This document shows, one piece after another, positions 1,988-63,682 of a stretch of 64,000 nt of DNA. Source of the DNA: Nitrososphaerales archaeon (GTDB lineage Archaea > Thermoproteota > Nitrososphaeria > Nitrososphaerales > UBA213); contig CBDAOC010000019.1 in the NCBI GenBank assembly GCA_965197925.1, positions 416,001-480,000 on the forward strand, in the 5' to 3' direction. Under the pieces are notes generated by a model. It was given only the letters and a program-made list of their open reading frames with translations, had not been told where the DNA came from and searched no databases. Position 1 is the first letter of the stretch. The number at the start of each line of letters is the position of its first letter. Both the position numbers and the translations under genes were made by a program.

Positions 1988-2154
1988 GAGCCTATCCTAA
2001 AATTCTAGCTGATAGTTAATGATTGGTAGAAATGATAACATTTAGAATGCAAGAATATTAGTTCAAACTGTCGGGTTTAGTTTTCTTACTATTGATTTTA
2101 TTAGTATTGTAGATAGTAGATACTAGAAACAGTTGCATTAACGTGTTTATGACA

Positions 2155-2948: not shown

Positions 2949-3052
2949 AAATTTAGCTAGAGAGGACAGATCTAGAATATATGAAAACGTAAACTAGCCA
3001 TTTTAAAATTTTGACAAATCTGACGACCATTATATAAGGAGTAAAAATAACT

Positions 3053-3375
3053 GATGTGTCGAATAATTATCCAAAAGATCGTGTTCGGTTGACAGAATAA
3101 GATTTTGATCACCATAACTATGCAGCATCATGCCAGATAGAAACTGGAAAGAATACAATGAGGCACCCGTTAGAAGGGGGGAGATACTGTTGGATATGGA
3201 CTTCATAGATACATGGCCAGATGAGCTGGCAAAAATGAATGATGGAAAGGTAAGGGAAACCATTCGATTACCCGAAATCGCTGACAAGACTACTGGCAAT
3301 TATGCATGCGTATTTGCCGCCATACGGGCAGTCGGAAGGACTTGCATTGACGAGTCATACAGGTTTGAAGGCACC
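3053..3375 (+). mobile_element. IS5-family (IS903-like) 5' remnant
   Basis: RNWKEYNEAPVRRGEILLD motif; left end resembles 45787. Confidence 0.75.
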
Positions 3376-3803
3376 GGCTCTGTAGAAACCATACCATAAA
3401 TACAGTCAACCTATACATGTTGTAGGCTATCACTTTGAACATCAATTCCCTATTCTTCATCTTCACCATTCTTGATGCTATACGGTCACCAAGCATCCTC
3501 TTTACCACGGACAGTATCGTCTCATTCTTGTTCCTCTGATAGTAAAGTTGTTTGTAGAATCTTCTCTTCATCTGCTTCCTATACCCTCCATACGTTCTCC
3601 ATATTGGAACATCTTCATATCTGGCAGGCATGATACTGGCAGCATCAGGTTCTTTTCATACAAATTCATGATTTGCTTCACCATCTTCACTATCATAACC
3701 CTTGTCTGCTACAACGATAGATAATGGCATTATGTTAGATGTTCTTTCCATAATGGGTCTGAAATCTATGGTATCATGCTTAGGAGCACGCCTGATCTTC
3801 ATT
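3376..3803 (-). mobile_element. DDE transposase IS 3' remnant (same family as 58771-59731)
   Basis: Terminal GGCTCTGTAGAAACCATA; ADKGYDSE and YYQRNKNETILSVVKR. Confidence 0.85.
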
Positions 3804-3804
3804 A

Positions 3805-4848
3805 GACCTATTACGTAATTAGGAATCGTAACTACCTTAACCTCAGCCAGATGCTCGCTCTTCATAACATCATTCCTTTACTTCGCATCATTCTGAAGTT
3901 CACCAAACCAGAAACTATATCGGAAGCATTATTGTAGTGTTTTAGCCTATTCCTGAACCTTGTTCCCATTATATTGAACTTCCTTGCTTTGCTTATTGCA
4001 TGCCCAACCACAAACCTCTTCCTTGCAAGCCTTTTATTCTTCCTTCCTTCCGTTTTCGACAGCTTTCTCTTTCTCTTCTTCTTTACCGGTAGAACACACC
4101 CCATGTCAGGAAAGTCATTCTGGACTCCATTGTATCCCAGATCGAAATGATTCTCAACCCGTGAAGGAGTCATGGGATGCTTCCCATAGATTGAATAATC
4201 GTGCTTCCTCACACTCTCATGACCTGTCTTATGGAGTATCAAGCCATTGTCATTCACCATGTACTGGATCTTCAGTATGCCTCTTCCTCTTGCCCGAGTA
4301 GTAGCACTTCCTTCTCCTCTTATTCTTGGGCCTGAGTATCTCCTGCCCTGCAGCATCGATGAATGTCCTGAAACCAGGAAAGTATAGTTCAACCCCTTCC
4401 ATGGCTCTGGCTCTTCTTGACATGCTGTACAGTTTCCTTGGAAGTGGGATGCACTTCTTTACGAGAGATTCCAGCATGTGTATATCTCTATACACATTGC
4501 CCTGGCCAGGATCAAGGAGGAAGCCGGAGAGCGTGTATGTTATGTATAGCTTGTAATAGACCAGAAGCATCAGGAACCTGTCCTTTAGCCCAGGCTTGAA
4601 TTTCCTTCCGGCATCGATATCTCTTTTTCTCCTTTCGGACAGGCGTCTTCTTTCATACTCATACCTTGATGTTATCTCCCTGTAGATGGCATCGAATTCT
4701 GCCACTTCCAGTCCGGTGAATGATTTGAATAACGATGGCTTCCTGAAGAGGCATGTATAGTTCAGCGATGGCATGTATACTATAGATACAAGCCCTGATC
4801 TGATCGTTTCGATTCAGGCTACAGAATTGTCTAATTACGCAATAGGTC
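3805..4848 (-). mobile_element. IS5-family ISL2-like element, frameshifted transposase (3862-4774)
   Basis: TIRs GACCTATTACGTAATTAG / CTAATTACGCAATAGGTC; FKSFTGL, YYSGKRKRHT and DLGY motifs. Confidence 0.85.
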
Positions 4849-4869
4849 TACTGTAGTCAAAATTAGTCA

Positions 4870-5237
4870 TACTGCGGGTTAAGACAAGAATCCGACTCGT
4901 AAGTTTTTCTACCGGCTTCTGACCTTATTTTACTAGAAACCGCATACTCTGGGAAATCATAACAGACATCGTGGATAATATCCATTAACGTCATCTGATT
5001 ACAATGGTCAGCAATTCTTTTCCTCAATTCATTAGCATATCTCTAGTTTTCTTTTCTGAACGGCCCAAATCTTTCACGACCTGCTGGTGTCAGTGCAAAT
5101 CTATCGACCCAGTGGCCAAATGAACTCTTGACTTTATGTTTGTCAGCAAAACCATCTCCAATTGGAGACTCTACATCCTGTGCTAGGCTTGGACTAGGAC
5201 CATGGTTGCTTGCCATCCAATCTTGATAAAACCTTGT
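4870..5237 (-). pseudogene. Panacea/SocA (DUF4065)-like antitoxin-domain remnant
   Basis: Hand translation FYQDWMASNHGPSPSLAQDVE...RFALTPAG...*...LMDIIHDVCYDFPEYAVSSKI; internal stop, 5' end missing. Confidence 0.5.
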
Positions 5238-5299
5238 CTAGGCCTTTTATTTTCTTTGAACCTAAAAACGCATATTTCTGCAATCTAGTTGCACCATCA

Positions 5300-5600
5300 A
5301 TCCAATGTGGTAAAAAACAGATCGTTAGATCGGTTTTGGTAAAAACTGGCAAGAATTCACCAATTCTTTACCTTTACCAGTTTGGTAAAAACCGCTAGGT
5401 GGGGGTTTTTGTAAGCGTGCCAAAATGGTAAATGGTAAGCGTGAAAATGCTATTGGTAAGGAATTTTGAAAATGGCAGGCTCACCATTTTGGTAAACTGT
5501 TTGTGGGATAAAAGCGATAAAAAACATCACCAGTCAAATGGTAAAGATTTTGTGAACCTATTTTATTTTTGTAAAATATTTGAAGTGCAAGTGGTAACAT
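5300..5600. repeat. cluster of TGGTAA/TTACCA motifs in non-coding DNA
   Basis: About ten copies, including the inverted pair TTTACCA-GTT-TGGTAAA. Confidence 0.6.
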
Positions 5601-5776
5601 CACGGATATGATAGGCGTGATTGTGATATTGCAGTCATAAAAAGTCATAAATGATTATTTCCCGAATAGTGTTGTTTGTGATATTTGCAAGTCTAATCAT
5701 AAATGAAAAATTGTATTTTTACACACCATTTGAAAAAATACATCCCTTTCCTGCAACTAGTACCGTGATAGCTACG

Positions 5777-5821
5777 GTTCTGGCAGATTCTAGTGATCAG
5801 ATCACCAGAATCTGCCAGAAC
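5777..5821. repeat. 45-bp near-perfect palindrome
   Basis: GTTCTGGCAGATTCTaGTGATC-A-GATCACcAGAATCTGCCAGAAC, 22-bp arms with one mismatch. Confidence 0.9.
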
Positions 5822-6540
5822 ATGCCCGAACCACGCTCCATCAGTTTTGTTTTAGTTTCAGGTTTTACACATACCGGAGTATCGTCAGATGATTTAAAAA
5901 GCAATTCTAGTTCTTTTTTACATAATAAATCGCTAATCGCAATACCTGAATTGAGTTGTTTTAAGGGAGGAAGCAGACTATAGTATGGTGGTTGTTCTAA
6001 ATCTGCCATTGCACATAAACTAGGTGTGGGAAACATTGACACACCTGAAGCTATCACCTCGATTGTATTGGTATCTGCAGTTAACGGTATTTCCAGGATT
6101 CGTGCCTCATCAGTAGAGTTTTCCTCGTATTCTACCCCGAGCCCGTCAACAAGTACGATGAATATATCGTCTTCGCTAGGTTTTCCATCACGTACGAATT
6201 TCATATCAAGCATCTGTCTTGGTATGTAGATTGTTAAGGTTTCTTCCTTAGCTTCTTGCATATAAATCAATAAATTCGGCCACACACAATCAAGTTCTAT
6301 TTTTTGTATAATTGAATCCGATACCTTATATGGGATGTGATACACATAATGCCCGTATACTAAATAATAGATCTCGTAATTAGGATCGGAAAAAGGATCA
6401 GTATTATCTGTTTCAATAGCAAAAACGGGCAGCAAAAAAAATGTAAATAGAACTAAAGTGGCAATACTAGTGAGTGCAAGAAAGAAATAATTATTTTTAG
6501 AATATGGAAAATAATTTATTTTATTTGTCATCATGACCAT
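5797..6540 (-). CDS. secreted/surface protein, thaumarchaeal PEFG-CTERM-like domain with PLKQ...C...CVKP...ERG tail
   Basis: N-terminal TM helix; TLTIYIPRQMLD...FIVLVDG..VEYEE...IEVIAS; the C-terminus runs into the palindrome. Confidence 0.7.
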   Translation of the reverse strand: MVMMTNKINYFPYSKNNYFFLALTSIATLVLFTFFLLPVFAIETDNTDPFSDPNYEIYYLVYGHYVYHIPYKVSDSIIQKIELDCVWPNLLIYMQEAKEETLTIYIPRQMLDMKFVRDGKPSEDDIFIVLVDGLGVEYEENSTDEARILEIPLTADTNTIEVIASGVSMFPTPSLCAMADLEQPPYYSLLPPLKQLNSGIAISDLLCKKELELLFKSSDDTPVCVKPETKTKLMERGSGMFWQILVI

Positions 6541-6584
6541 TTGATTTCACAACAAAAAAAGAAAGAATATTTTTCCTTGTTTTA

Positions 6585-7228
6585 TCATTTACTGATTGTC
6601 CACGTGGTTCTATTCATAGTTATGCAGTTCTCTAGAGAATTTCTATCTGCAGGTGAAGTCGGGGCCTGTGATGTCTCATTTCCAGCAGAATCTAGATACT
6701 TGTATTTGGTAAACTGCATACTAAATGTTGGATAATGAGAACATGTGGTACTTGCTGTTTCTATTCCCATTCTGTGTCCTCCGCCTCCAGTTCCTAAATA
6801 GAGAGTTGTGTTTGGGGCCTGTTGGATCTGATAGCTATTCAATACTCCTTGCGTATGATCCTGATACGCTGCAAGCCAAGTGCCATTGCTATTGAACAGC
6901 GATAATGTGATATCGTGTCCAGCTGGATCAAAGGTCACTGGCTCGTATTTCTCCCATATCTTTGTACCTCCATCTAAATAACCACGCCAGAAGTACCACC
7001 CCTCTCGGTCATACCAGATATATCCTTAACGTATATAAAATTACATTCAACGTAATTCCCACGAGGATTTTCAAGATATGCAAGCAGTTGTGGTCCTGAT
7101 GCCCAAGAATTTGAATTAATTGCTATAGTTTTCAAAGCACTTGGAAGCACACCTCTTGTTCTGTTTCCGTATGGCACAGGCGTGGTATTTGGCCACTGCA
7201 TCAAAAATCGAAATCCAACATTAGCCAT
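6585..7228 (-). pseudogene. hypothetical beta-rich protein, frameshifted near 7010
   Basis: ORFs 6974-7228 and 6585-6938 join via DREGWYFWRGYLDGGTKIWEKYEPV. Confidence 0.5.
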
Positions 7229-7439
7229 TGTCTCTTACCTTTCTTTTCTACAATATAAAAGCTTTCACGACTTATTCCAATAAGCGGATTTACATTTAGG
7301 ACACAAAACACAGAGTATCTAGGAATATTAATACAATAGTTATAAGTGATGTTTTTGTTTAGTTACAGTAATTCTTAATAGAATAACTAAGCGGTATTTG
7401 AATTACTGCATTTTTAGACCAAGATAGAAGAATTAAAAA

Positions 7440-7593
7440 TTCTAGAACCATAGTTTTTAGCCCATTGTATAGAAATATAGAATATAGAATTACACCATTA
7501 GATCAATGTAAGATTTCATTCATGCCTATGCATGAAAGAATCACGATACGTGAAACTTGCAGAAACGATACTCAATGTCTTGATAAGGGCTAG
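7440..7593 (+). mobile_element. 5' stub of the 58771-type IS
   Basis: Encodes MKESRYVKLAETILNVLIRAR; upstream matches the 59645-59731 end. Confidence 0.75.
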
Positions 7594-7621
7594 AAGTTAA
7601 CAGAACTAAGCCTAACAGTAT

Positions 7622-7990
7622 GTGAACAAAGGATCTAAATCTAATACAGATAATATATCATACATGTTCGTTGGACTAGATATACGCAAGAACTACATAC
7701 AAGCAGCTATTATGGATGAACAAGGAAGTATAGGAAGAGAAGTATTCAAAACAATGTACATGATATTGAGAAATTCTTTACCAACATTACGGATGCCAAG
7801 GTAGTTATGGAGCCATCAAGCATATGGTACCACATATACAAGCTCTTGAGCAAAGTACCAAGTTGTCTTAATCCTATCAAGACAAAAGCCATTGCATCTA
7901 CAAAGACAAATAGATAGATGCTAGAATACTTGCTGATCTTCTACGGGGAGGATACATAGCCGAGTGTTATGTTCCTGATGAAACTGTCGA
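7622..7990 (+). pseudogene. IS110-family transposase N-terminal remnant
   Basis: FVGLDIRKNYIQAAIMDEQG...VMEPS...DARILADLLRGG across frames. Confidence 0.75.
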
Positions 7991-8099
7991 CAGAAACGCT
8001 TAAGAGCAGTTCACATGGGTATCCGAAAATCCTATTTCAGAGATTGTATTCTTATCGATGCTCTTATACCGCCAATAATTATATCGGAATGTGATAGAT

Positions 8100-8465
8100 G
8101 GACTTACCAGTGAATTGCTCTTTATACTATTATTAGACAGTTAACAAATTGCTCTTCCAAATGCCCGATAATTCTCTTTCTTCTTCTCATATCTTGTTAA
8201 CAACTTGAACCTGTTATGTTATGACGCTGTCCTCCCTACAACCTATCGTTTTGACCTAGGATTTTCTTCTTTATCATTATTCTTTATCATACCTTCTGTC
8301 TAATGTGATCAATATGTCCCTGATCAATATGTCCTCTCTCCATCGACTCTTCTTGTATTTCAGGAAAACTTGTCCATACACACATATTCTATTCTGTTTT
8401 AGATCTATCAATTACGATATTGTCTATTGCAGGAAAGATTGATTTCATATCGTGCCTGTTTCAGT
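8100..8465 (-). pseudogene. IS5-family transposase C-terminal remnant
   Basis: Degenerate match to 62815-63155 (KR*VVGRTAS*HNRFKLLTRYEKKENY). Confidence 0.7.
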
Positions 8466-8698
8466 TCGTGAAATGTCTGCATTATTGGGCATGTAATCTT
8501 GTTAGGTTTCCAGATGCAGTATTTCAGCCCCGTAATTCCTGGATTTTGTTCCGTCACTGTCTTATTACGCAGGCACTTGAGAATGAAGCCTTTGAACTTC
8601 CTGTTAATACTCTCAACATCTGTATCTGCAAGTAATCGCTCTAATTCCTCAGCTTCTTCGGCGGTCCATATTAAAAACGAGCGATATTTGCTGGGCAT
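8408..8698 (-). CDS. element hypothetical protein downstream of the integrase (C-terminus IS-derived)
   Basis: Starts 4 nt after the integrase stop. Confidence 0.5.
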   Translation of the reverse strand: MPSKYRSFLIWTAEEAEELERLLADTDVESINRKFKGFILKCLRNKTVTEQNPGITGLKYCIWKPNKITCPIMQTFHELKQARYEINLSCNRQYRN

Positions 8699-8702
8699 CT
8701 AC

Positions 8703-10103
8703 TTACTCCCTCAAATGTGGTGCGGAACCATTGTGGTAGTATCCTATGGCGCAACGCATGCTGCAAAAATAATCATAATTCTCATCTTTGATTTCTGGTG
8801 GATTATGGAAGTAGCAAACGTCCTGCATGAGTATGGCCTCTGCAGTTGTGCGTGCGTACACCTTTAGCAGTGTGTTGACATCATCCCATCCCATTGATGC
8901 TACAAGGGTTGCATTGCTTGCCGTCCTGCGCATCGCCACATGCGCCCCGCTGTGCCTTAACACGTATACTAGCTTGTTTGCCCAGTACCATTCATCAGTT
9001 CCTTTGGGATAACTCCACTTCTGGTGCATGCCATTGTGCTCGTCATAATGTGACCTGTCAATTTTGCCTAGGGATACATAATAATCACTTAGTGCAGATG
9101 CAAGTTCGCTCTCCAATGCGACGACGCGGGTATTGTTACCGACATAGCTGCCACAGAATGTTGCACCGTGCTTCACACGCTTGATTATTTCAATCACCTT
9201 GGGATGTATTGCCATCTTGTCAAAGGCACGGTCTGTTTTGGATTCATACAATTGCATGATTGCATATTCACCATGAACGCCCTTGGCATCGATTGGCTTG
9301 ATCTCAAATTTGTTCACCATCGTGATTCCCGTCTTGGTCCTGGGAAAGACCTCGTGCAGCACGGCAAACAATTCCTCAAAACCATAACCATGCATGAACT
9401 TGAGCCCCCGTTCAAACTCCCTGTCCGTAAGCTTCACATTGGCATATGCGCCAAAACGCTTCTTCCTGCCTGACATGATACCTGTGATCCCACGTGGAAT
9501 AGCGATGCCATTCCTGATCATGAAATTACGGGTCGATGATATGTAACGGGTTATCTCCCTGGAACTGAAATCGATATTATTGAGTTGATGTGCGTACCTT
9601 GCCTCTCCTGCCTTGAACATTCTTTCAAACTCCTTTAGCAAGGCAACGCTTGTGTCAATGTCCTGCAGGAATGCATCCGGGTGAACATTCAGCGTGTTGC
9701 ATACAACGTTCAGGCCTTGTATCATATGGTTAACCGATACCACTGGCTGCCCATTCTTTCCAGCGGTCATCAAGTCGTTGAACCATTTCTGGACTGATGG
9801 AATCTGCAGGAATTCAGACTTTGCCATTTCTGCATATTGTACCTGCTTCCTGTCCTGTTCTGACCTGAGTAGATGACCAGTATTGGGATCTTTTTGTAGT
9901 TTCCCAGCCTTGACTAATTTATTCCATTCCAACCATACCCATTGTTCTGAACGATTCATGAGGGAGGCAATTTCGCTCCTGCTCTTTGATGAAATGCCTT
10001 TGGACTTGTTGCCGATTGTATGTTCATATACCATCTGGGTTAGTTGCTGTTGATCTTCCTCGCCACCGGCACGGTTCTTCTGCCAGGAGAATCTAGTTCT
10101 TAT
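8703..10103 (-). CDS. tyrosine recombinase/integrase with N-terminal HTH and C-terminal Cys motif (first ATG at 10034, probable ATA start at 10103)
   Basis: FPR (Arg), ESKT (Lys), YVLRHSGA, MGW and KVYA (Tyr) motifs in canonical order. Confidence 0.8.
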   Translation of the reverse strand: MRTRFSWQKNRAGGEEDQQQLTQMVYEHTIGNKSKGISSKSRSEIASLMNRSEQWVWLEWNKLVKAGKLQKDPNTGHLLRSEQDRKQVQYAEMAKSEFLQIPSVQKWFNDLMTAGKNGQPVVSVNHMIQGLNVVCNTLNVHPDAFLQDIDTSVALLKEFERMFKAGEARYAHQLNNIDFSSREITRYISSTRNFMIRNGIAIPRGITGIMSGRKKRFGAYANVKLTDREFERGLKFMHGYGFEELFAVLHEVFPRTKTGITMVNKFEIKPIDAKGVHGEYAIMQLYESKTDRAFDKMAIHPKVIEIIKRVKHGATFCGSYVGNNTRVVALESELASALSDYYVSLGKIDRSHYDEHNGMHQKWSYPKGTDEWYWANKLVYVLRHSGAHVAMRRTASNATLVASMGWDDVNTLLKVYARTTAEAILMQDVCYFHNPPEIKDENYDYFCSMRCAIGYYHNGSAPHLRE

Positions 10104-10243
10104 GTTCCCTCACCTTGACGGCATTCCATGCACAAAAATTCACGATCGGCTGGATTCGAGCAGTCGCACTTCCCTATCGTGCTGTGAAAGCTGCATCCAG
10201 CGCATCTTATCTTATGCTCATGTATCGATACATTGGTAGTCAT
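10100..10243 (-). CDS. 47-aa zinc-finger microprotein (possible excisionase or regulator)
   Basis: MTTNVSIHEHKIRCAGC...CDC...FLCMEC; ATGA overlap with the upstream RHH gene; conserved at 41407-41550. Confidence 0.75.
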   Translation of the reverse strand: MTTNVSIHEHKIRCAGCSFHSTIGKCDCSNPADREFLCMECRQGEGT

Positions 10244-10428
10244 GCTTCCACCTCGGTTTTACGGTTCATTTGAGTGGCCTCATGATAGTCTACCTCTTTT
10301 CGTAAATCATGCTGAACCAATTGTGAAAAATTAGTAAATGGTTTGTTATGACCGCATATTTCATCACAATAAAATTTCAAACTTCTAGGAATTTTTATTG
10401 TGATCCAATCATCAGTTGTTTGTTTCAT
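10240..10428 (-). CDS. ribbon-helix-helix regulator
   Basis: WITIKIPRSL...FTNFSQLVQHDLRKEV. Confidence 0.7.
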   Translation of the reverse strand: MKQTTDDWITIKIPRSLKFYCDEICGHNKPFTNFSQLVQHDLRKEVDYHEATQMNRKTEVEA

Positions 10429-10537
10429 ATGTTATATATTACATATACATCTATTTATAGATTATGTAACATTTTGCATAAAATAGTTCAATAAAAAAAC
10501 ATATAAAATTAATAAACAAATATGTAAAGTTTAACAC

Positions 10538-10915
10538 ATGGTAGAATGGGAAACAGTGGCAATACCTAAATCGTTAGTAGAACAGATTGAAAAAATCATA
10601 AATTCAGAATATGGAGCAAAAATAGGCTTACGAAATAAAAATCAATTTGTGACAGATGCTGTTAAAAAACTAATTCAAGAATGTTCAGAACGCCTCAAGC
10701 ATATAAACATGTACGATGACCACGTAAAAATTATGGACAACAAGCTTGGTAAATTGGGCAGAATCGTATCGGTATACTTTAAAAAAGGAAATAATCCATG
10801 GTGCGACTACTGCGAGGAGCCAGACTGCATCCATGTCCAGTACGCATGGGAGATTGCAGGCGTGCGGAAGATTCTGGAAAAATATAGGTTTAGTCCTCCT
10901 CCGTCAAGGGTCTAA
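10538..10915 (+). CDS. RHH regulator with C-terminal CxxC...CxH zinc domain
   Basis: WETVAIPKSLVEQI...NQFVTDAVKKLI; WCDYCEEPDCIH. Confidence 0.8.
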   Translation: MVEWETVAIPKSLVEQIEKIINSEYGAKIGLRNKNQFVTDAVKKLIQECSERLKHINMYDDHVKIMDNKLGKLGRIVSVYFKKGNNPWCDYCEEPDCIHVQYAWEIAGVRKILEKYRFSPPPSRV

Positions 10916-11338
10916 CTTTCATTGGCGGATAGTTTGATTTTAGGTACATGATACATTCGCCCTAGGTTCCTGAATTTTTTGGATTACTTATTTCGTCTTT
11001 CCTTTTTGTTTGCCCTTTTTGGTTCCAGTATTATCTAGTGACCCCAATGAATTTACATACCGTGGCATGAATTGGCCAAACGCTGCGGCAAGCGGTCTGT
11101 TGGTCACCTTCCATTTGCGCATCCAGCGCTTGATATATTCAGGTGCATCTGACACACGCAATGGTGGTATATAGATACCTGTTGGTGCAGATTGATTGTT
11201 CTGAAGTTATCGGTATTAGTATCTCTGGAGAGCAGACCGCTGGTCATAGTACAAACAAGCTATGGTCATGCCGGCTCATTGAATGGAAAAGCCAGTGGTT
11301 CTAGTAGTTGGCAGTTCACAGAAAGAATACTGAATTGA

Positions 11339-11707
11339 TTATAGCGTTGTTATATTATCATGGATGTAAGCCAGGATTTCATGCCTGGGAAGGTTCTGCA
11401 TCCAGAGGGCGATGATCTTGACTGGAATTTTATGGGTTACCCCCTTGCGTTCTATTGTGATAGAAATGTTGTCCTCCGGGAACAACATGAATCTTTCCGC
11501 TTGCCTCTTGTATTGTCTTACAGCAAGATTTAATGTGCTTTCCAGCCACCTGTTATTTTTTTTGTACAGCTTGACCTTGCCGAAACAGCATACATACCGA
11601 TTCCCGGTTACGCTGACATGATGCCTGCAGTACTCACAGAATATTATATGCTTCCGGCGATCCCTGAAGCTTGATTTGATTTTTCTGCACTTAACCTAGA
11701 TGCTTAT
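11339..11707 (-). pseudogene. Cys-rich element protein (homologue of 42249-42620), early nonsense codon
   Basis: FCEYCRHH...VCCFGKV...; TAG where copy 2 has CAA. Confidence 0.7.
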
Positions 11708-12076
11708 TCCTGCTCACCCTTGGGAGCAAACATCTTCTTGATGCCCTTCTTGCCCTTTACATCATCGTACTCATAGCGCACCTTGGTCTGTGTCAGCTCC
11801 TTTATCAAGGCACCATTGATTGACTTGGTCGCAGTCAGTGACCTGATGAACAGGTTGTAATAATTTATTGCGAGATGTTTTAATTTGTATGGCAGTGCAT
11901 GAATCAATAACGGTATGTGTTCTATCTCAAAAACTGCCAGGGGAAGTGCATCAGTGCTTATCATTGAAGAGTAGAGTTGCCTCATAGGGTCGGGTAGTAA
12001 CTATCGCCCTGCCTGTTGCTCTCCTGTATAAGCTCCATCAACCGATCGCTGGACAATGGTTGATATTATACAGCAT
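11704..12076 (-). pseudogene. element protein (homologue of 42617-42997), frameshifted N-terminus
   Basis: RSLTATKSINGALIKELT shared with copy 2. Confidence 0.75.
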
Positions 12077-12159
12077 ATGGTTATGACGTTGAATTTTTTA
12101 CTTGAACAACCGCTCTGTTAATAGTTTATAGAGCGACCTACCAGCCCATATCATTCAGG

Positions 12160-12215
12160 ATGCCCAGCAGCGTCATGGTCCTCTCGCCGGAACGCTGTTG
12201 TTGTTGATCGCTCAT
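12160..12215 (-). pseudogene. 5' stub of the element ATPase (rest deleted in copy 1)
   Basis: MSDQQQQRSGERTMTLLGI matches the start at 44031. Confidence 0.7.
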
Positions 12216-12498
12216 AGTTCCATATCCTTGAATGTGTTCTGTAGGTATTCGCTGATCGTATCCTCGAGTTTTGGCAGCGCCTCGTTAGCCACTCCCATTG
12301 TGCGGTGCTCATTGATGACGGTCTTGTATTATCCCTGCTAGGTGGCCTGGGTAGTTCGCATCGTGCTGGTTTTGGCAGGACGCTGTTCATTGAGTTGATA
12401 CATAGCATAATATCATATACCTTCCCCTGCTGGATAGCGAATACTATACCCTGCCTGTATTGCTGTAATGCAGTAGTGAGTATCTGTAGTAAGCCCAT
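12212..12498 (-). pseudogene. element ORF1 (about 95 aa), 1-nt frameshift
   Basis: Restoring one G gives ...AQWEWANEALPKLEDTISEYLQNTFKDMEL* with an ATGA overlap onto the ATPase. Confidence 0.7.
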
Positions 12499-12682
12499 GG
12501 GGTAGTATAGGGAGGGGAGTATATGACGTTGAATTTCTAAAACAGTAATAATATACTATATGTATATAGGGACCTCGGTCCTTCGTATCGTCTGACTACC
12601 CCCCGAAAAATGTAAATATTATTGACTTAATACTTTACTTTTAATGCATCATAGTACAGCGCTAGCACAGCACTATTAGCAT

Positions 12683-12771
12683 AATTTAGGTAGCACACTT
12701 TTACGTAAAGGTGTGCTACCTAGTACACACCTTTTTGCAAAAGGTGTGCTACTAGGTGTGCTACCTAATTT
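12683..12771. repeat. tandem palindromes near the element right end (origin, packaging or recombination site candidate)
   Basis: TAGGTAGCACACTTTTACGTAAAGGTGTGCTACCTA followed by a second TGCA-centred palindrome; covaries with 44495-44569. Confidence 0.85.
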
Positions 12772-12907
12772 CAAAAACCGTGCTATTTTATGCCCTATTT
12801 TATGGTAAACATAAAATACCGTGCCTGTAAAATGCTAATAGTACTATTCTAGATCTGTTTCGGTATAAACAATTAGGCTATGATGTTAATTTTCGGATAA
12901 GCTCTTA

Positions 12908-39510: not shown

Positions 39511-40381
39511 CAACTCATCTCAAAACTAACCATTTAGACAATTTTTAGCGGCCATTTAGATCTATGAATAGCGACATCTAAAATTATTTTATGAAATTCC
39601 AAGAATTATCAGACAAACAGTGGAGTATGATGGAATCACACATACCACCACATGCAAAAACTGGCAGGCCTAGGGATTATGATAGAAAAATCATTAACGG
39701 AATAATCCATGTTCTAACTACTGGATGCCGATGGGACGATATGCCAAAAAGATATGGTGATGATTCTACTGCAAACAGAAGGTTAAACAAATGGCAACAA
39801 AAAGGAATCTGGAAAAAGATTCTATCGCGTACTATTCACTCAGCACATAAATCTGGCAAAATTAATCTACAAATATCAGTTGACTCTTCATCCATTCCTG
39901 ATAAAAAAGGGGCAATGTAACTGGATATAATGGATTCAAGAGAATAACAGGTACAAAAATACATGCCGCAGTAGAGAGTAACGGATTTCCAATATCCATA
40001 CTGTTGAGTCCAGCAAATGAACATGACAGTACAAAATGCATGGATGTTACAGGATCAATTTCAGACTATCTTGATGATGATTCAATACAACAGATAGAAC
40101 CAGTTTATGCAGACAAAATGATGCAAAATACATCAGAATGTATTTGTGGGATAGAAATATTGCATGTTGCATCCCATACAAAATAAATTCCAAGTTCATC
40201 TTGCAAAATAATGATTGCAAACATTACAGCAAGACAAGATTTGTAGTTGAGAGATTCCTTGCATGGCTCAAGAATGGATTTCACAGAACAAGAATCAGAT
40301 ATGAAAGAACGGCAGAAAACTACCTGGCATTTGTTAATCTTGCATCATTTTTGATGTATTGTAGGGTTTTGAGATGAGTTG
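39511..40381 (+). mobile_element. IS5-family (IS427-like) element Y, truncates the copy-2 integrase
   Basis: TIRs CAACTCATCTCAAAAC; inverted relative to X. Confidence 0.92.
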
Positions 40382-41410
40382 ATAATAATCACTTAATGCC
40401 GATGCAAGTTCTCTCTCCAATGCGATGACACGTGCATTGTTGCCAATATCACTAGTACAAAATGTTGCACCGTGCTTCACACGCTTGATTATTTCAATGA
40501 CCTTGGGATGTATTGCCATCTTGTCGAAAGCACGGTCTGTCTTGGACTCGTATAACGGCATGATTGCGTATTCATCATGAACGCCCCTGGCATCGATTGG
40601 CTTGATCTCAAATTTGTTCACCATTGTAATCCCCGTCTTGGTCCTGGGAAAGACCTCGTGCATCACTCCAAATAATTCTTCAAAACCATAACCATGCATG
40701 AACTTCAACCCTCGTTCAAACTCCCTATCTGTAAGCTTCACATTGGCATATGCGCCAAAACGCTTCTTCTTGCCAGACATGATGCCTGTGATTCCACGTG
40801 GAATTGCAACACCATTCCTGATCATGAAATTACGGGTTGATGATACATAATTGGTTATCTCTCTGGCACCAAAATCGATATTATTGTTGAATTGATGTGC
40901 ATGCCTTGTCTCACCTGCCTTGAACATTCTTTCAAACTCCTTTAGCAGGGCAACGCTTGTATCAATATCTTGTAGGAATGCATCCGGGTGAACATTCAGC
41001 GTGTTGCATACAACGTTCAAACCCTGTATCATATGATTAACCGATACCGCTGGCTGCCCATTCTTTCCAGCGGTCATCAAGTCGTTGAACCATTTCTGGA
41101 CTGATGGAATCTGTAAGAATTGAGACTTTGCCATTTCTGCATATTGTACCTGCTTCCTGTCCTGTTCTGACCTAAGTAGACGACCAGTTGTAGGATCTTT
41201 TTGTAGCTTGCCTTCCCTGACCAACATTTGCCATAGTTCCCATACCCACTGTTCCGAACGGTTGATCAACTTTGCAATCTCCTGCCTGTTCTTTGGCATG
41301 ATACCCTTCGATCGATTGCCGACCGTATGCTCATAGACTTGCTGCAGTAGTTGTTGTTTATCCTGTGGTTTCTTTACACGTTGTTTATCCCAGGAGAATC
41401 TAGTTCTTAT
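40382..41410 (-). pseudogene. integrase copy 2, catalytic C-terminus removed
   Basis: High identity to 8703-10103 up to ALSDYY, then IS. Confidence 0.85.
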
Positions 41411-41550
41411 GCTCCCTCACCTTGATGGCATTCCATGCACAAAAATTCATGGTTGGTTGGATTCGAGCAATCGCACCTCTCTATCGTACTGTGAAAGTTA
41501 CATCCAGCGCATCTTATCTTATGCTCATGTATTGATGTGTTGGTAGTCAT
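41407..41550 (-). CDS. 47-aa zinc-finger microprotein
   Basis: MTTNTSIHEHKIRCAGCNFHSTIERCDCSNPTNHEFLCMECHQGEGA. Confidence 0.75.
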   Translation of the reverse strand: MTTNTSIHEHKIRCAGCNFHSTIERCDCSNPTNHEFLCMECHQGEGA

Positions 41551-41708
41551 GCTTTGGTCTCCAGCTTGTCTAGTTTTTCACGAATAACTAAATCGATAAA
41601 TTGGTTAGTATTAGTCATGCTTGGGTCGGTCTTCTTTTTGATTAGATCTTTGATTCTTTTTGCTAACTCATCTCTTAGCCGTGCTGTCGTCCAACCTTTT
41701 ACTGTCAT
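41547..41708 (-). CDS. ribbon-helix-helix regulator (53 aa)
   Basis: MTVKGWTTARLRDELAKRIKDLI...NQFIDLVIREKL; same position as 10240-10428. Confidence 0.7.
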   Translation of the reverse strand: MTVKGWTTARLRDELAKRIKDLIKKKTDPSMTNTNQFIDLVIREKLDKLETKA

Positions 41709-41760
41709 ACTATAAATATACTATAAATCCTATTTAAATGTTTATAGTATATTTATAGTA
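41708..41760. promoter_or_regulatory. operator-like repeats in the divergent promoter
   Basis: TACTATAAA twice, TATTTAAA, then TTTATAGTA twice (inverted). Confidence 0.6.
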
Positions 41761-41827
41761 TTTTTTCACAACATAGAATTAAAAATCAGGCATAGCCTTT
41801 TATTAAAATATCTGGTAATAATACTAT

Positions 41828-42214
41828 ATGGTAAAAGAAACATGGTCAGCAGCTAATGTGAGAATTTCGTTACTTCGCAGAATTAAAAAAGCGTTAGAGT
41901 CAGAAGAAGCAAAAGAAGAAGGGTTAAACAACGTTAATCAATTCATTGATTCGGCAATACGAGATCTATTAGAAAAATTAGAATCCGAACGCTTCAAGCA
42001 TATAAACATGTACAACGACCACGTAAAAATTATGGACAACAAGCTTGGTAAATTGGGCAGAATCGTATCTGTATACTTTAAGAAAGGAGGTAATCAATGG
42101 TGCGACTACTGTGAGGAATCAGACTGTATCCATGTCCAGTACGCATGGGAGATTGCAGACGTACGGAAGATTCTGGAAAAACGTGGGTTTAGTCCTCCTC
42201 CGTCAAGGGTCTGA
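41828..42214 (+). CDS. RHH regulator with C-terminal zinc domain
   Basis: C-terminal half near-identical to 10538-10915; N-terminal half different. Confidence 0.8.
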   Translation: MVKETWSAANVRISLLRRIKKALESEEAKEEGLNNVNQFIDSAIRDLLEKLESERFKHINMYNDHVKIMDNKLGKLGRIVSVYFKKGGNQWCDYCEESDCIHVQYAWEIADVRKILEKRGFSPPPSRV

Positions 42215-42248
42215 CTCTTGCTAGATAGTTTGATTTCAGAATCCTGAA

Positions 42249-42620
42249 TTACAGTGTAGTTATATTATCATGGGAATAAGCCAGGGTTTCATGCCTGGGG
42301 AGGTTCTGCATCCAGAGGGCGATGATCTTGATTGGAATTTTATAGGTTACCCCCTTGCGTTCTATTGTGACAGAGATGTTGTGCTCCGGGAACAACATGA
42401 ATCTTTCCGCCTGCCGCCTGTATTGTCTTGCCGCAAGATTTAATGTGCCTTCCAGCCACCTGTTATTTTTTTTGTACAGCCTGACCTTGCCGAAACAGCA
42501 TACACACCGATCCTCGATTACGCTGGCATGATGCCTGCAGTTCTCACAGAACACTACATGCCTTCGTCTATCTTTAAAACTTGATTTGAGTTTTCTGCAT
42601 TTAATTTGAACACTGTTTAT
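42249..42620 (-). CDS. Cys-rich element protein (GTG at 42554 or ATA at 42620)
   Basis: FCENCRHH...CVCC; conserved in copy 1. Confidence 0.7.
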   Translation of the reverse strand: MNSVQIKCRKLKSSFKDRRRHVVFCENCRHHASVIEDRCVCCFGKVRLYKKNNRWLEGTLNLAARQYRRQAERFMLFPEHNISVTIERKGVTYKIPIKIIALWMQNLPRHETLAYSHDNITTL

Positions 42621-42997
42621 TCCTGCCCATCCTTGGGGGCAAACATCTTGTTGATGTCTTTCTTGCCCTTTACATCACCATCGTACTCATAGCGCACCTT
42701 GGTCTGTGTCAGCTCCTTTATCAAGGCACCATTGATTGACCTGGTCGCAGTCAGTGACCTGATGAACAGGTTGTAATAATCCCTTGCAAGGTGCCTTAGT
42801 TTCGGCGGCAGTGCATGAATCAATAACGGTATGTGCTCTATCTCAAAAACTACCAGGGGAAGTGCATCCGTGCTTATCATTGAAGAGTAGAGCTGTCTCA
42901 GGAGATCCGGGTAGTAGCTATCGCCCTGCCTGTTGCTGTTGCTCTCCTGTATAAGTTCCATCAGCCTATCGCTGGACATGTCCTGGTTATGCAGCAC
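42617..42997 (-). CDS. element hypothetical protein
   Basis: 126 aa; conserved in copy 1. Confidence 0.75.
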   Translation of the reverse strand: MLHNQDMSSDRLMELIQESNSNRQGDSYYPDLLRQLYSSMISTDALPLVVFEIEHIPLLIHALPPKLRHLARDYYNLFIRSLTATRSINGALIKELTQTKVRYEYDGDVKGKKDINKMFAPKDGQE

Positions 42998-43015
42998 ATG
43001 GTTATAACGTTGAAA

Positions 43016-44031
43016 TTAGATTGCGTCATTCACGGTTGTCTTTTCCTGTGCCACCCTGACCAGGGTTTCATGTCGTTTTTTCCTTTCCTGCCATAACTCC
43101 TCACGCAGTATTTTCTCAACCTCTTCCCAGTCAATTTTGCATTCATGTGCATACCTGTTTATCGCATTGAATATAGAGCGTGTCCTGCTTTCAATTGCAC
43201 CGGTTCTATTCTGGTTGAAGTATAGGTACCACCACAGGCATGCCCATACCTTGTCCCGGCCATTTTCTGCGAGCAATTTATCCATGAGATCCCTTGCAGG
43301 CATTTCCGCCCCGTGAAAATCCTTGGCGCACTTGTTGCATCCATCCCGGTAATAGAGTATACCATGTAATTTACCTAGCTCACTAATCAATGCAATGCGG
43401 AATGGGTTGTGCGTGTGATAAGTGTATTTTCCTATCCTGAACTGCTTGCGCAGCAGCATCGAGCGGTACAGCCTGGTGAACCTGTGCAGTTTCATTGCGT
43501 TCTTGTACCCAAATAACTTCTGGAAGTTGTCCATCTCCTCATCCGATATCGAGGTAACAATCTTGAAATCCGTGTCACGGAAGAACTTCTCAAGTGCCTT
43601 GCTATAGTGGATGTTCATGAACACGATTACCGGGTTCCTCACCTCGTGCCTTATCGTCGTCAGGCCTGCCGCCAGCTTGTTGCGCTCGGGTTCAGACATC
43701 TCTGCAAAGGTATAACTGGCATCATCGAATTTCAATATTGATGGTGCCTTTGGCATCTTCTTTATGATGTTGTGAACATCCATCAGTTCATCCGCCCCGT
43801 AATCGTAGACTGCAAAGTTCTTCCTCTCATGCAGCAAGTGGGATAACAGGGAAATTATCGTGTTTTTCCGGACCCGCTGTGCCCTATCGATAGTATGCCC
43901 GTGTAGCCGCTTAATGAGTTGTGGTTGAGGATATTGTTGATTACCAGGTTCGGTGAGTGCTTCTGCAGGATTGGGATGCCTAGCAGCGTCGTGGTCCTCT
44001 CACCGAAACGCTGTTGTTCTTGGTCGCTCAT
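43016..44031 (-). pseudogene. P-loop ATPase (A32/Zot-like motif layout), 1-nt frameshift just after Walker A
   Basis: GHSGSGKT, frameshift near 43860, then TIISLL; Walker B ILKFDD; IRH...VFMNIH...LEKFFR. Confidence 0.75.
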
Positions 44032-44311
44032 AATTCCATATCCTTGAATGTGCTCTGGAGGTATTCGCTGATGGTATCTTCCAGTTTTGGCAGTGCGTCG
44101 TTAGCCCACTCCACTGGGCAATGCCCATTGACGACGGTCTTGTATCATCCCTGCTCGGTGGCCTGGGTAGTTTACACCGTGCTGGTTTTGGCAGGACGCT
44201 GTTCATTGCGTTGATGCATAGCATGATATCATATACCTTGCCCTGCTGGATGGCAAATACTATGCCCTGCCTGTATTGTTGTAGTGCCGTTGTAAGTATC
44301 TGTAGCCCCAT
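44028..44311 (-). pseudogene. element ORF1 (about 94 aa), 1-nt frameshift
   Basis: Homologue of 12212-12498. Confidence 0.7.
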
Positions 44312-44494
44312 GTAGTAGTAGTAGTAGGGGGAGGTAGTTAATGACGTTGAAAAGCATTATAACATATTATATATATTATAGGCACTTCGTTCCTTCGTAT
44401 CGTCTGGCTACCCCCTGAAAAATGTTAATGTTTTTGACTTATTACTTAACTTTTTTAGTTCACTTTAACTGTTCCAGAACAGTTAATATCCCGT

Positions 44495-44569
44495 AATTTA
44501 GGTAGCCCCCTTTACGTAAAGAGGGCTACCTAGTACACACCTTTTTGCAAAAGGGGGGCTACCTAAATT
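44495..44569. repeat. tandem palindromes near the element right end, copy 2
   Basis: AATTTAGGTAGCCCCC...GGGGGCTACCTAAATT with internal TTTACGTAAA and TTTTGCAAAA. Confidence 0.85.
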
Positions 44570-44607
44570 GAAAAACCTGTTAACTTCCCCCTACTTTATG
44601 CCAAACG

Positions 44608-45627
44608 TCAAGTTACAGGCACGTTATTCCCGATATACTGTCTTCTAGATTTATTTCCATACTTTATTGGTGAATCTTTTTCCCAAGCTACATACTCCCA
44701 TTTCCAATGTGTATGATTATTGTCATATTCAACCATAGCATGATTCGATGTATTCACAAAAACCACAGGATTGTTTTTTGAAAGATACCAATGCAATATT
44801 GATCTTTCAGGTGCAGGAGGTTCATCCTCATGTATACTGTCATAATAAAGGCAGTAGCCTCCACTGTGAATATCTTCAAAAATAAAATGAATAGCTACAT
44901 TATTTTCTGACTTGATCTTGAATGACTCAATATCCTTTATTCTACCATATCTTATCTTCCGATAAAGTCTATAAGGCCAATCGAAGACCCAATGTTTTCG
45001 AAGCCTTTCATCGTTAAAAACCAAGGATATATCAAAGTATCCGTTGTTATTATTATGACAATGAATTTCACGCAGGAAATTTTTCCAAGCATCTACATAC
45101 GGCTGGTAAATTACTGGTATTAGCCTGTCATCAGGAGGAGAACCTGTATCAAAAATAACATCATGACCTTCTTTCCTCGGTTTTTTTGAAACATATTCCA
45201 ATTCTTCAAACAAATTCTCAAGAGAATCGTCCCTTTCTCCTTCAAGTTGCCAAATCTCACATTGATCAAGGGATCTATCATCTTTCTCAAGGTCATTTTC
45301 TATTTTCAGCTTGATTACTTGTCTTTGATTTTCAGTTTGAGGAATGTTATTTCCAATTAGTGCTTCTGATACTAGCTTTGGTCTTTCAAAATTGATCACT
45401 ATTACACTCATCATTGAATCAACCGAAATCTCTCTCTGTTTAAATCTGCTGTAAATTCTCTCCCTCCTCCTAATTACCACTCTTACCTTTTGATTTCCAA
45501 GTGGTATTAAAGTAAACCTACAATTATCCCAATTCCAACTGCTTTTCTCTTTTGTCCAAAATTCCTCAAAACTTTTCTTTTTAGGTTCGTATTTTTCTTG
45601 GGTATAAGAAAACCAAAGATTTCCCAT
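44608..45627 (-). CDS. hypothetical protein; last about 11 codons supplied by element copy 2
   Basis: 339-aa ORF; the TCTAGA junction encodes SR near the C-terminus. Confidence 0.75.
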   Translation of the reverse strand: MGNLWFSYTQEKYEPKKKSFEEFWTKEKSSWNWDNCRFTLIPLGNQKVRVVIRRRERIYSRFKQREISVDSMMSVIVINFERPKLVSEALIGNNIPQTENQRQVIKLKIENDLEKDDRSLDQCEIWQLEGERDDSLENLFEELEYVSKKPRKEGHDVIFDTGSPPDDRLIPVIYQPYVDAWKNFLREIHCHNNNNGYFDISLVFNDERLRKHWVFDWPYRLYRKIRYGRIKDIESFKIKSENNVAIHFIFEDIHSGGYCLYYDSIHEDEPPAPERSILHWYLSKNNPVVFVNTSNHAMVEYDNNHTHWKWEYVAWEKDSPIKYGNKSRRQYIGNNVPVT

Positions 45628-61564: not shown

Positions 61565-63682
61565 GAGGCAAAGTCGTAAATTAGTTCGAAACGATAAGAA
61601 CAGGTTCTAGTTTTTATTGTTGAAATTTTTATTCAGACTCTATACTTCTTCATATATTATTTTTGATTGATGTGATTCCTTGGCCAAAACTTATAGGAAA
61701 AGAAGCAGTCTTTTTACTACTCACCATAAGTAATGGTGAGATGCTTCACCGTTAGAGTGTGGCTAAGAATCCCAAGCAACAATGCTTTGCATCAATATTT
61801 TTCGTTAGATATTGTATACAACAGGAGAGTAATGAAATTATATGGGTTGGATAGGTAGTCAGACAGAAGAAATTTCGACAGAAGTTCCAAGAGCATATCA
61901 TTTTAAAGTCAAGAATAGATTTAATGGCAATCCTGTTTGTAAGAGAAGGATTGGTAGACCCAATCATTATATCTGTTGACGCTTGCTTATTGAAACCAAA
62001 GGGATGTGTATAGCACAAATTAAGCATGATGAAGAATATAATTCCACACTCTGGAATATATACAGATGCAAGATGGTGCTACAGCAAAACCAAAGGATGG
62101 ATATTTGGATACAAGCTGCATATGACATCTAGTTCAGATTCATTGATTGTACCATCGTCTGCTGAACTCACTACCATCAATATTCGTGACAATAATATCT
62201 ATCAGAGTATAACAATATCATTGCCAGAAGGAATTAGGTACGTGGCTGCAGATGAGGGATATGATAATCATGGACTAAGAGCTTATCCTAAAATTAACAT
62301 CATAGCCTAATTGTTTATACCGAAACAGATCTAGATCTGTCCTCTCTAGCTAAATTTGTGAGAAAATCAAAGAAAAAGAGCATGCCGACCATATGGCATA
62401 TACCAGACAATCTATGGGTAGAGTTCAAACTAGTGCTGCCGCCAGGGAAACCAGCAAGAACAGTTGGAAGACAGGCTGTGCCATTTAGAAAAGTATTGAA
62501 TGGAATACTGTACGTATTAAGAACTGGATGCCAGTGGAAGAAGGTATCGAAAGAATTTGGTTCTGGCTCAACTTGCCACGCAAGATTTCAGGAATGGATT
62601 GGGATAGGAGTATTCAAGAAGGTATGGAAGAGGCTGCTGGAAATATATGATGAATTGAAGGGTATAGGATGGGACTGGCAATCCATGGATAGCGTACCGA
62701 AGGCCCCATTAGGGGGAAAACGACCGGAGCAAACCCAACGGATAGAGGCAAGCTAGGTACCAAACGTCACATGCTGGTTGATAGAAGAGGTATTCCTCTC
62801 TCATCTGTAATTACTGGAGCAAATAAACACGATATGAAATCAGCCTTTCCTACAATAGATAGCATTGTTGTTGATAGGCCCAAAGTTAAACAGAACATAT
62901 GCATGAATAGGATATGATATGATTTCCCTGAGATAGAGTATGGAGTTAGGAAGGGGATATGTGGATCACATTCGTCGTAAGGGTGAAGTGTTGAAAAAGA
63001 ATTTGTACAAAGCAAAGAGATGGGTTGTAGAAAGAACCGCATCTTGGCATAACAGGTTCAGAAAGTTATTGGTAAGGTTCGAGAAGAAGGAAAATTATCA
63101 GGCGCTAGTAGAATTTGCTAACTGCCTAATAGTGTATAGAGCGATATATTGGTAGTGTCATAAACACGTTAATGCAACTGTTTCTAGTATCTACTATCTA
63201 CAATACTAATAAAATCAATAGTAAGAAAACTAAACCCGACAGTTTGAACTAATATTCTTGCATTCTAAATGTTATCATTTCTACCAATCGTTAACTATCG
63301 GCTAGAATTTTAGGATAGGCTCTAAATCAGTTCAGCAAGTAAAGTATTCCTTCTTGCCTCCCTATAGAAAGTTATGGACATACAAAGTATGATAGAATAG
63401 CATTAATATGATTCTATCAATCTAAAATTGGGTAGTATGTATATTGGCAAAGCATTAGCGTTGAGCTATTGATAGAGTAGATAAAGGATGTATTTGACAG
63501 ACCCAATATCAGATAGAGAATTTGATAAAGCTAGGGGCATCGTTCTGATTTCTATATTGCTACGTAAGCTGACGGTATATTTCAACTGCTTAACAGGAGG
63601 CCTTAAGGGCATAGATGTACACGCTGGGAAGTTAAAGAAGTAATTTCAAAATATTATTATTATTGACTTATGTCCAAGCCTC
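61565..63682 (+). mobile_element. DDE_Tnp_1-type IS copy 3, decayed, interrupted by IS5 copy B
   Basis: Degenerate TIRs; ADEGYDNHGL continues as NQFSK after the IS5. Confidence 0.8.
62279..63322 (+). mobile_element. IS5-family element copy B (complete ends)
   Basis: TIRs GAGCTTATCCTAAAATT / AATTTTAGGATAGGCTC; TAA duplication at 62276-62278 and 63323-63325. Confidence 0.93.

Follow-up and report, generated by a model that had tools for sequence, protein, structure and literature searches.

How do two diverged copies of one sequence come to stop at the same six letters in unrelated surroundings? The question arises in a 64,000-nucleotide window of the genome of a Nitrososphaerales archaeon (positions 416,001 to 480,000 of contig CBDAOC010000019.1, assembly GCA_965197925.1), where two stretches, termed here copy 1 and copy 2, are 82-90% identical across four blocks and both reach the hexamer TCTAGA at one end. 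A first-pass annotation of the window had proposed that the two were integrated independently and that their target was preferred through an extended consensus, TCTAGATyTrTTTC. We consider it likely that the window contains two decayed copies of an element family that integrates by recombination through a 6-bp TCTAGA core, with a strong bias towards one site in an insertion sequence (IS) of the IS5 family and with occasional use of host sites. Features of the window are listed in Table 1.

The right junction of copy 2

The TCTAGA of copy 2 (44644-44649) lies 55 bp past a block, CCCTA(T/C)TTTATG, that is common to both copies (44589 to 44644), and copy 1 has the identical spacing (12793 to 12848); letters and distances were as first described, and the sequence near the right end has indeed diverged, the last 60 alignment columns being only about 55% identical. 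The flanks, TCTAGATCTGTTTC and TCTAGATTTATTTC, belong to unrelated loci, as had been stated, that of copy 1 to the left terminus of an IS of the IS5 family and that of copy 2 to the 3' end of the open reading frame (ORF) at 44608-45627. The flank of copy 1 was correctly traced to an IS, but it is not ordinary host DNA, being one half of an IS that the copy has split. Position 40382, given as the left limit of copy 2, is not an element end; it is the point at which a further IS5-family copy (39511-40381) cut the recombinase gene.

The break in the host gene could be placed exactly at the codons TCT AGA, because two homologues, P0157 (96% identical) and P0278, end in KYGNKSR-KQLDDEYS and diverge from the interrupted ORF, which ends in KYGNKSR-RQYIGNNVPVT, exactly after KSR. 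The string RQYIGNN occurred in none of the 120 listed homologues, and the new tail is element DNA, since copy E (below), located elsewhere in the genome, carries an end 98% identical to it. Few of the insertions lie in a host gene; copy 2 is among them and has replaced the tail of that gene, and position 44649 is, on comparison of the copies, the true right end of the element. Empty alleles were present in P0157, P0278, record 7 of X10 and record 16 of X11; in the latter two, which come from other studies, contigs of 6-7 kb match the host gene to 44639 and then continue for about 5.9 kb in sequence unlike the element. The filled allele was bridged in public runs X3 and X9, in a comparison that covered 4 of 22 runs, as contigs; runs X15-X21 contained less than 0.2 of the words. 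The divergence after KSR and the empty alleles together support independent integration at TCTAGA, as the first-pass annotation had held. The native tail KQLDDEYS was not found in the genome by a search allowing at most 2 mismatches, none of the four TCTAGA-AAR-CAR sites in the genome matched it, and no left end of copy 2 was found in the genome. The host protein has 126 homologues, whose source names point to Nitrososphaerota, the basis on which the host is assigned; none of the 120 listed has a Pfam domain, and the C-terminal half of the protein gave a sub-threshold match to NF047489 (the Lsa23 surface adhesin family; E = 3e-19).

Junctions across the genome

Copies in the genome were lettered A to H, copy 1 being copy A and copy 2 having the B/E type of right end. 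All eight right ends stop at TTCTAGA, which is more than chance would give, and an 80-bp left-end sequence, present 14 times, starts at TCTAGA in 13 cases. Fusions of IS halves revealed the left end of the element, so that copy 1 could be seen to span 2971-12853 and to split a single IS. Complementary IS halves flank copies A, E and H and a non-IS site flanks copy G; these four copies carry TCTAGA at both ends, and empty IS sites and an empty host allele were found. Each intact junction has the core once, the target being split there with no further duplication.

Fifteen of the 21 TCTAGA junctions fall in one 16-bp palindrome of the IS5-family element, in both orientations. They comprise six of the eight right ends, three of them joined to the left 58 bp of the IS and three to its transposase half (three per orientation), and nine of the 13 left ends at TCTAGA. 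The genome contains 951 TCTAGA sites, 487 of them outside ORFs of at least 120 amino acids, and about 60 sites (some 12% of the 487) lie in the target IS. On a minimum count of events, 9 of 14 are in the IS (binomial P = 6e-6 at p = 0.12); on the most cautious count, with right ends collapsed by type, the figure is 4 of 6 (P = 0.003, or 0.04 at p = 0.25), both tests presuming independent events, a condition that composite copying could break. A right end of the copy 2 type was also joined to an IS half in the contigs of another study (X10).

The IS5 family is marked by an IS5-type DDE transposase, short terminal repeats and a 2-4-bp duplication. The target IS belongs to it, having terminal repeats and TWA-type flanks, and both ORF pieces of its transposase match NF033580, each below the whole-protein cutoff. 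The core lies 52 bp inside the IS, away from the terminal repeat, and the duplications that the IS itself makes are of 3 bp. Of the 62 left halves of the IS, 51 are intact (46 scored by script, 5 with small indels judged by eye); the remaining 11 run into other DNA at the core, as do nine right halves. The outer duplications of split halves match exactly in two of four pairs, which is weak evidence because only TAA and TTA occur. To judge from its position, an insertion parts the TATA-like box from the transposase start and would silence that IS copy. Among the 46 scored intact copies, the palindrome had become TCCAGA in five, was altered in the right arm in four and carried a short duplication at the core in one; these are possible escape variants or excision footprints.

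The proposed extended target

The longer consensus did not withstand scrutiny. TCTAGATyTrTTTC has 57 matches in the genome, 56 of which are the same IS end and the last copy 2 itself; having been built from the IS left half and copy 2, it matches only its sources. Nor did the flank pattern extend to further copies, six held-out element-adjacent half-sites scoring 5, 5, 3, 5, 2 and 5 of 8, where background sites averaged 2.9. A mild T-rich lean in these flanks (simulated P = 0.016; 0.048 for the five non-IS flanks) vanishes once four orphan junctions are added (P = 0.42), and the six non-IS junctions have nothing in common beyond TCTAGA(A/T). Of 1788 non-IS TCTAGA half-sites, 14 (0.8%) agree with the IS flank in at least 6 of 8 letters; the copy 2 flank is among them, which may hint, as one case and not a rule, at an enzyme preference for arms of this kind. 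The other, native half of the copy 2 site breaks the pattern, since it would begin AAR-CAR, as read back from the residues KQ. The genuine additional preference is for the IS palindrome, not for TyTrTTTC.

A divergent tyrosine recombinase

The 443-amino-acid recombinase of the element gave no integrase hit in Pfam, PHROGs or NCBIfam. A word-indexed search retrieved only 7 close relatives and a profile search 183, and an alignment (A3) was made from 95 of 150 listed representatives, short and partial ones being excluded. A first structure model, from 6 sequences, had a predicted local distance difference test (pLDDT) score of 46.7 and was discarded; the model from a 100-sequence alignment reached 94.6, and its best Foldseek matches were XerA, XerH, Cre and lambda Int (best E = 7e-5). 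Catalytic residues are conserved across the 100 aligned rows (R232 in 99, K266 in 100, R360 in 99, W383 in 94 and Y393 in 99), 9 of the 100 members match Pfam Phage_integrase, the family profile includes an N-terminal helix-turn-helix, and the Int protein of Tn1549 was among the weak matches of the recombinase searches. The element encodes, on a high-confidence model and with the catalytic residues conserved, a divergent tyrosine recombinase with a core-binding and a catalytic fold, and the linkage of gene and ends predicts that it acts on those ends. In copies A, C, E and G the gene is whole and lies kilobases from the attachment (att) sites, and the family is present in 45 of 401 genomes of the order.

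Relatives elsewhere bear on how far the core can be generalized. TCTAGA was not found at the ends of multicopy relatives in genome G151, and a same-family relative in G001 yielded no usable ends, so the core is claimed here for this element and not for the family. The G151 relatives include four dispersed recombinase-only repeats of 1.3-1.6 kb (L063-L066; 74-83% identical), which look like IS-sized tyrosine-recombinase transposons. A relative in G093 (L061/L062) lies in a 19-kb tandem unit, and the two junctions seen there read TCCAGAAA, one letter off the core. In G026 and G036, ORFs resembling that at 41828-42214 adjoin recombinase relatives when the loci are read by eye, and neighbouring capsid-like and ATPase genes are, we presume, of the double-jelly-roll type.

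Gene content and the nature of the element

Shared by the copies is a module that encodes the recombinase, an ATPase, two small regulators, a zinc-finger protein and two further ORFs, of 119 and 95 amino acids. Copy D carries a further 11.5 kb among these genes, encoding a glycosyltransferase-like membrane protein, 4 or 5 small hydrophobic ORFs, a 1298-amino-acid PKD protein and a basic protein. Left arms bear varied cargo, including a PDC-S01 defence candidate, and the left arm on C15 contains a 324-amino-acid ORF (G000:C15:90030-91010) that is PIWI (Argonaute)-like by eye. The ATPase gave sub-threshold AAA/nSTAND hits, and its atlas neighbours at 0.96 are 60-91% viral. An 84-amino-acid two-helix ORF occurs in two left arms, broken in one; it and a 92-amino-acid ORF each have two hydrophobic stretches, and the atlas neighbours of the 84-amino-acid hairpin protein (0.90) are mostly viral clusters, with one VP1-like entry at 0.87, rank 23, which is a lead only.

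This content suggests that the fullest copy is a decayed provirus of an enveloped, perhaps spindle-shaped, virus. That the ancestor was a temperate, membrane-containing archaeal virus, possibly spindle-shaped, we hold to be about evenly balanced, and the identity of the element is less certain than its mode of integration. It is also quite possible, if somewhat short of an even chance, that the element is no provirus but plasmid-like or a cryptic integrated one, bearing defence cargo and a membrane module of the secretion or conjugation type: searches of PHROGs, Pfam and PDB gave no capsid hit, none of the genes was recognized as a replication gene, the left arms carry defence-like cargo, and most thaumarchaeal elements in one survey are classed as cryptic (PMC6563490). 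The mostly viral neighbours of the ATPase and the hairpin protein argue against it, as does the finding that the relaxase, VirB4 and VirB6 families had no member among the 26 proteins of copies D and H that were scanned, all copies being incomplete. When the recombinase, the ATPase and the capsid candidate were used for locus searches, no relative was confirmed in metagenome, viral or genome contigs, collections that may lack near records.

Integration through the core

We propose that the recombinase would cut and rejoin DNA at the 6-bp TCTAGA core and that, as tyrosine-recombinase chemistry leads one to expect, the element would excise as a circle by joining its two cores and then re-integrate at another TCTAGA. 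Overlaps of 6-8 bp are described for such enzymes (PMC3212892, PMC8371274), and the junction pattern here fits conservative recombination across one by way of a circle. Because the core is self-complementary, either orientation would work. The enzyme would bind the element ends specifically and the target arms loosely, the symmetric IS site being by far its best-used target, and insertion there would separate the TATA-like box from the transposase at little cost to the host.

Several observations weigh against this scheme or the viral ancestry joined to it. Neither excision nor a circle or its joint (attP) was observed, no test having been aimed at one, and the action of the recombinase on the ends is deduced from linkage only. 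One left end (C19:345395) lacks TCTAGA, and two of five orphan IS-half junctions have imperfect cores, so strict identity of the core is not always required. The target arms have no clear motif in common with the element arms, which leaves recognition of the IS unexplained. Copies A, D and F have the last 60 columns in common (98-100%) and lie in the same orientation; with ends so alike, their junctions could stem from one insertion. In the recombinase, a Tyr replaces the first His of the HxxR motif (as in 31 of the 100 rows), and the template modelling scores of the fold matches are weak (0.23-0.40). The capsid candidate matched no capsid family in the databases named above, no related virus was found in IMG/VR, and no copy is complete.

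Two findings suggest that the enzyme may also make one-ended rearrangements: five IS halves continue, across a perfect or near core, into DNA belonging neither to an element end nor to the second half of the IS, and on C17 a 1.2-kb piece has a left end on either side. Copy 2 could have arisen in this way, by recombination of just the right end of a resident copy with a chromosomal TCTAGA; it lacks a left end, and the assembly does not contain the native tail of the gene. The loss is nonetheless accounted for by the IS5-family copy at 39511-40381, whose mismatched 3-bp flanks indicate that a later rearrangement removed the left part of copy 2, and KQLDDEYS is on none of the orphan junctions. 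We regard a one-ended origin of copy 2 as unlikely; it would use the same enzyme and core and is therefore compatible with integration through TCTAGA as the best explanation for the family.

Less probable still is that there is no true preference for the IS, any TCTAGA being used in the manner of a Crypton and the IS excess reflecting the purging of insertions in genes together with copying or gene conversion of element-bearing IS. Such an account would draw on the 6 of 21 junctions outside the IS, alike only in TCTAGA(A/T), on the near-identical ends of A, D and F in one orientation, on the retention of both terminal repeats by the split IS and on the heavy rearrangement of this genome by IS elements. 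It fits poorly with the presence of at least four right-end types in the IS, in both orientations, and with the spread of the B/E end type over three contexts, a host gene, the IS and, in X10, a variant of the IS; moreover, some 430 other TCTAGA sites outside long ORFs, including small groups in other repeats, are seldom used, and the enrichment persists in the cautious count. That the IS itself made the junction TCTAGA, by target duplication or a transposase nick, with the recombinase irrelevant, is hardly credible, for although most junctions touch the IS, they lie 52 bp inside it and not at its terminal repeat, its duplications are of 3 bp and the same core stands at six non-IS junctions, copy 2 included.

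Relationship to known systems

Thaumarchaeal integrated elements likewise have a tyrosine recombinase, short att sites (down to 8 bp) and defence cargo; NitEve-E2 is inserted in the 3' end of a protein gene and supplies a new stop, and the 8-bp att of NitGar-E1 and NitGar-E2, TCCAGAAA, is one letter from TCTAGAA (PMC6563490). The published att table lists no TCTAGA site and no IS target, and the elements described there are mostly single-site, with proviruses of the tailed or double-jelly-roll type (PMC6563490). The element described here differs in having a 6-7-bp self-complementary core, used in both orientations, and at least 14 events in one genome. An integrase and short direct repeats confirmed by an empty site, which define the cryptic class of thaumarchaeal elements, are both present.

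Cryptons are alike in their tyrosine recombinase, 4-6-bp terminal direct repeats, lack of terminal inverted repeats, many sites and proposed circle (PMC3212892), whereas they are eukaryotic and recombinase-only and the present element is archaeal, 10-28 kb in length, carries cargo as well as virus-like genes and is found mostly at a single site in an IS. Short direct repeats without terminal inverted repeats are found here as well. By analogy of element organization, and not of recombinase homology, this prokaryotic element may be said to work like a Crypton, not to be one.

Fuselloviruses (SSV1) and other spindle-shaped viruses are temperate and encode an integrase, an AAA-type ATPase, two-helix hydrophobic proteins, a large surface protein and zinc-finger and ribbon-helix-helix (RHH)-like regulators. 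The present element, known from its genes alone, may resemble them in these traits, its ATPase and two-helix ORFs being candidate counterparts. SSV-type integrase genes are split on integration into tRNA genes through att sites of 40-50 bp (PMC8371274). Here, by contrast, the integrase gene stays whole, the att lies outside it and the targets are IS and host DNA; with no split gene, no att within it and no tRNA target, the element is not a fusellovirus by its integrase. Integrases of the Tn916/Tn1549 type bind their ends specifically, tolerate loose target arms, have a 6-bp crossover region and use many sites. Their coupling sequences vary, in contrast to the TCTAGA kept at 21 of 22 ends here, and no conjugation module was found.

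Multicopy, low-cost sites are also used by res-site hunters, by IS elements in transposon ends and by Dada transposons, with different enzymes. In the nesting known from prokaryotes, a small IS usually enters a large element; the reverse is seen here. In one review, the section on non-tRNA integrase targets makes no mention of IS elements (PMC8371274), and a literature search found no integrase-driven element with an IS as attachment site, most subscription papers being outside its coverage. By analogy, we would class the element as a tyrosine-recombinase integrated element whose novelty lies in its IS-site bias, a short core at many sites being already known from the Crypton and Tn916 types.

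If the bias is enzymatic, the usual nesting is reversed, a large integrase-driven element using an IS as its attachment site, and the frequent joining of a decayed, probably viral family to one IS suggests a parasite with another parasite as its landing pad. A recombinase family missed by Pfam and NCBIfam now has defined ends, a 6-bp core and an intact enzyme; core and enzyme together bear on how archaeal integrases switch targets, and a bidirectional integrase with so short a core may interest tool builders. Should the provirus be real, a temperate enveloped virus would be an addition to a host group for which PMC6563490 reported no such provirus. A fuller scenario, offered tentatively and in its entirety doubtful, is that a spindle-shaped-like virus of ammonia-oxidizing archaea had its integrase adapted to a palindrome in the promoter region of an expanding IS5-family element; dozens of harmless sites would thereby have become available, the IS copies entered would have been shut off and defence genes would have been captured or shuffled by one-ended recombination at stray TCTAGA sites.

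Features of the window and further observations

Table 1. Copies of the element, their junctions and neighbouring features in the 64,000-nucleotide window
Feature	Position	Strand	Remarks
Split IS5-family target, transposase-bearing half	1985..2976	-	
Copy 1 in full	2971..12853	.	from left end through cargo, IS debris and recombinase module to right end
True left end of copy 1	2971..3050	+	core of left attachment site (attL) TCTAGA 2971-2976; 14 copies in genome
Intact tyrosine recombinase, copy 1	8703..10034	-	R232, K266, Y357, R360, H361, W383, Y393
TCTAGA core, right junction of copy 1	12848..12853	.	
Left 58 bp of the split IS (terminal repeat and TATA-like box)	12848..12905	-	outer 3-bp flanks match the other half
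Second IS5-family element, which truncated copy 2	39511..40381	+	60 full-length copies; 3-bp flanks differ (GCA/ATA)
Tyrosine recombinase, copy 2	40334..41299	-	cut after about residue 324 of 443 by the IS5-family copy; lacks C-terminal catalytic residues
Copy 2, left-truncated remnant of an integrative element	40382..44649	.	left end and native host tail not found in the genome
Small ORF, 53 amino acids	41547..41708	-	no family hit
Divergent ORF, 128 amino acids	41828..42214	+	copy 1 orthologue matches phrog_38461 (E 5e-7)
Cysteine-rich (zinc-finger-like) ORF, 101 amino acids	42249..42554	-	kept across copies
ORF of 119-126 amino acids, function not assigned	42617..42997	-	kept across copies
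P-loop ATPase	43016..44031	-	two reading frames in copy 2; intact (337-339 amino acids) in copies C, D and F
First gene from the right end	44000..44311	-	95 amino acids in intact copies
Inverted- and direct-repeat cluster	44494..44570	.	about 75-150 bp inside the right end; arms co-vary among copies
Host gene	44608..45627	-	8 terminal residues (KQLDDEYS) lost; 11 residues and a new stop supplied by the element
TCTAGA recombination core, right junction of copy 2 (attR)	44644..44649	.	encodes S-R of the host ORF
Empty target, 16-bp palindrome ACAGATCTAGATCTGT	62325..62340	.	in intact IS (about 62278-63323), between TATA-like box (62314) and transposase start

Two of the small genes between recombinase and ATPase are presumably regulatory: we take the 53-amino-acid product of 41547-41708 to be an RHH-like regulator and the 128-amino-acid product of 41828-42214 to combine an RHH-like N terminus with a SWIM-like zinc motif. 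A near-perfect palindrome of 55 bp (41707-41761) lies between these two divergent genes and may be their operator; another, of 45 bp, is at 5777-5821. In copies A and C a 96-amino-acid RHH-like ORF (8408-8698 in the window) directly follows the recombinase and reaches into IS debris; it is absent at that place in copies E and G, which have an identical IS flank.

Near the right ends (12682-12770 and 44494-44570 in the window; L021-L028), an inverted repeat and two to three direct repeats carry each copy's own variant of the repeat. Five of 12 pairs change together, and none of 500 shuffles reached the covariation score and 2 of 500 the pair count, in a test on only eight related sequences with the structure derived from the same sequences. 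The cluster may be a putative origin, an incompatibility determinant or an arm-type binding region. On the left of copy 2, the inverted second-IS copies at 28674-29547 and 39511-40381 appear to have exchanged 3-bp flanks (GCA), which suggests inversion of the 10 kb in between.

Further junctions were seen elsewhere in the genome. At G000:C17:117471-118802 and C3:6256-8309, IS halves meet other DNA at cores that keep 4 of 6 and 5 of 6 letters, and the C17 insert opens with 398 bp that are 99.5% identical to an internal part of copy E. The piece between two inward-facing left ends at G000:C17:33269-34445 measures 1177 bp, carries by eye a toxin-antitoxin-like pair and sits in a split IS beside a 2.6-kb neighbour; it looks like a cassette built by the recombinase. 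A single metagenome match to the left-end pattern was rejected as due to chance, since it lay at the terminus of a bacterial dehydrogenase-like gene that is unrelated and that BLAST did not match to the genome. The left end at G000:C20:272023-272120 is about 60 bp from a tRNA 3' fragment and therefore probably lies within another, tRNA-targeting element.

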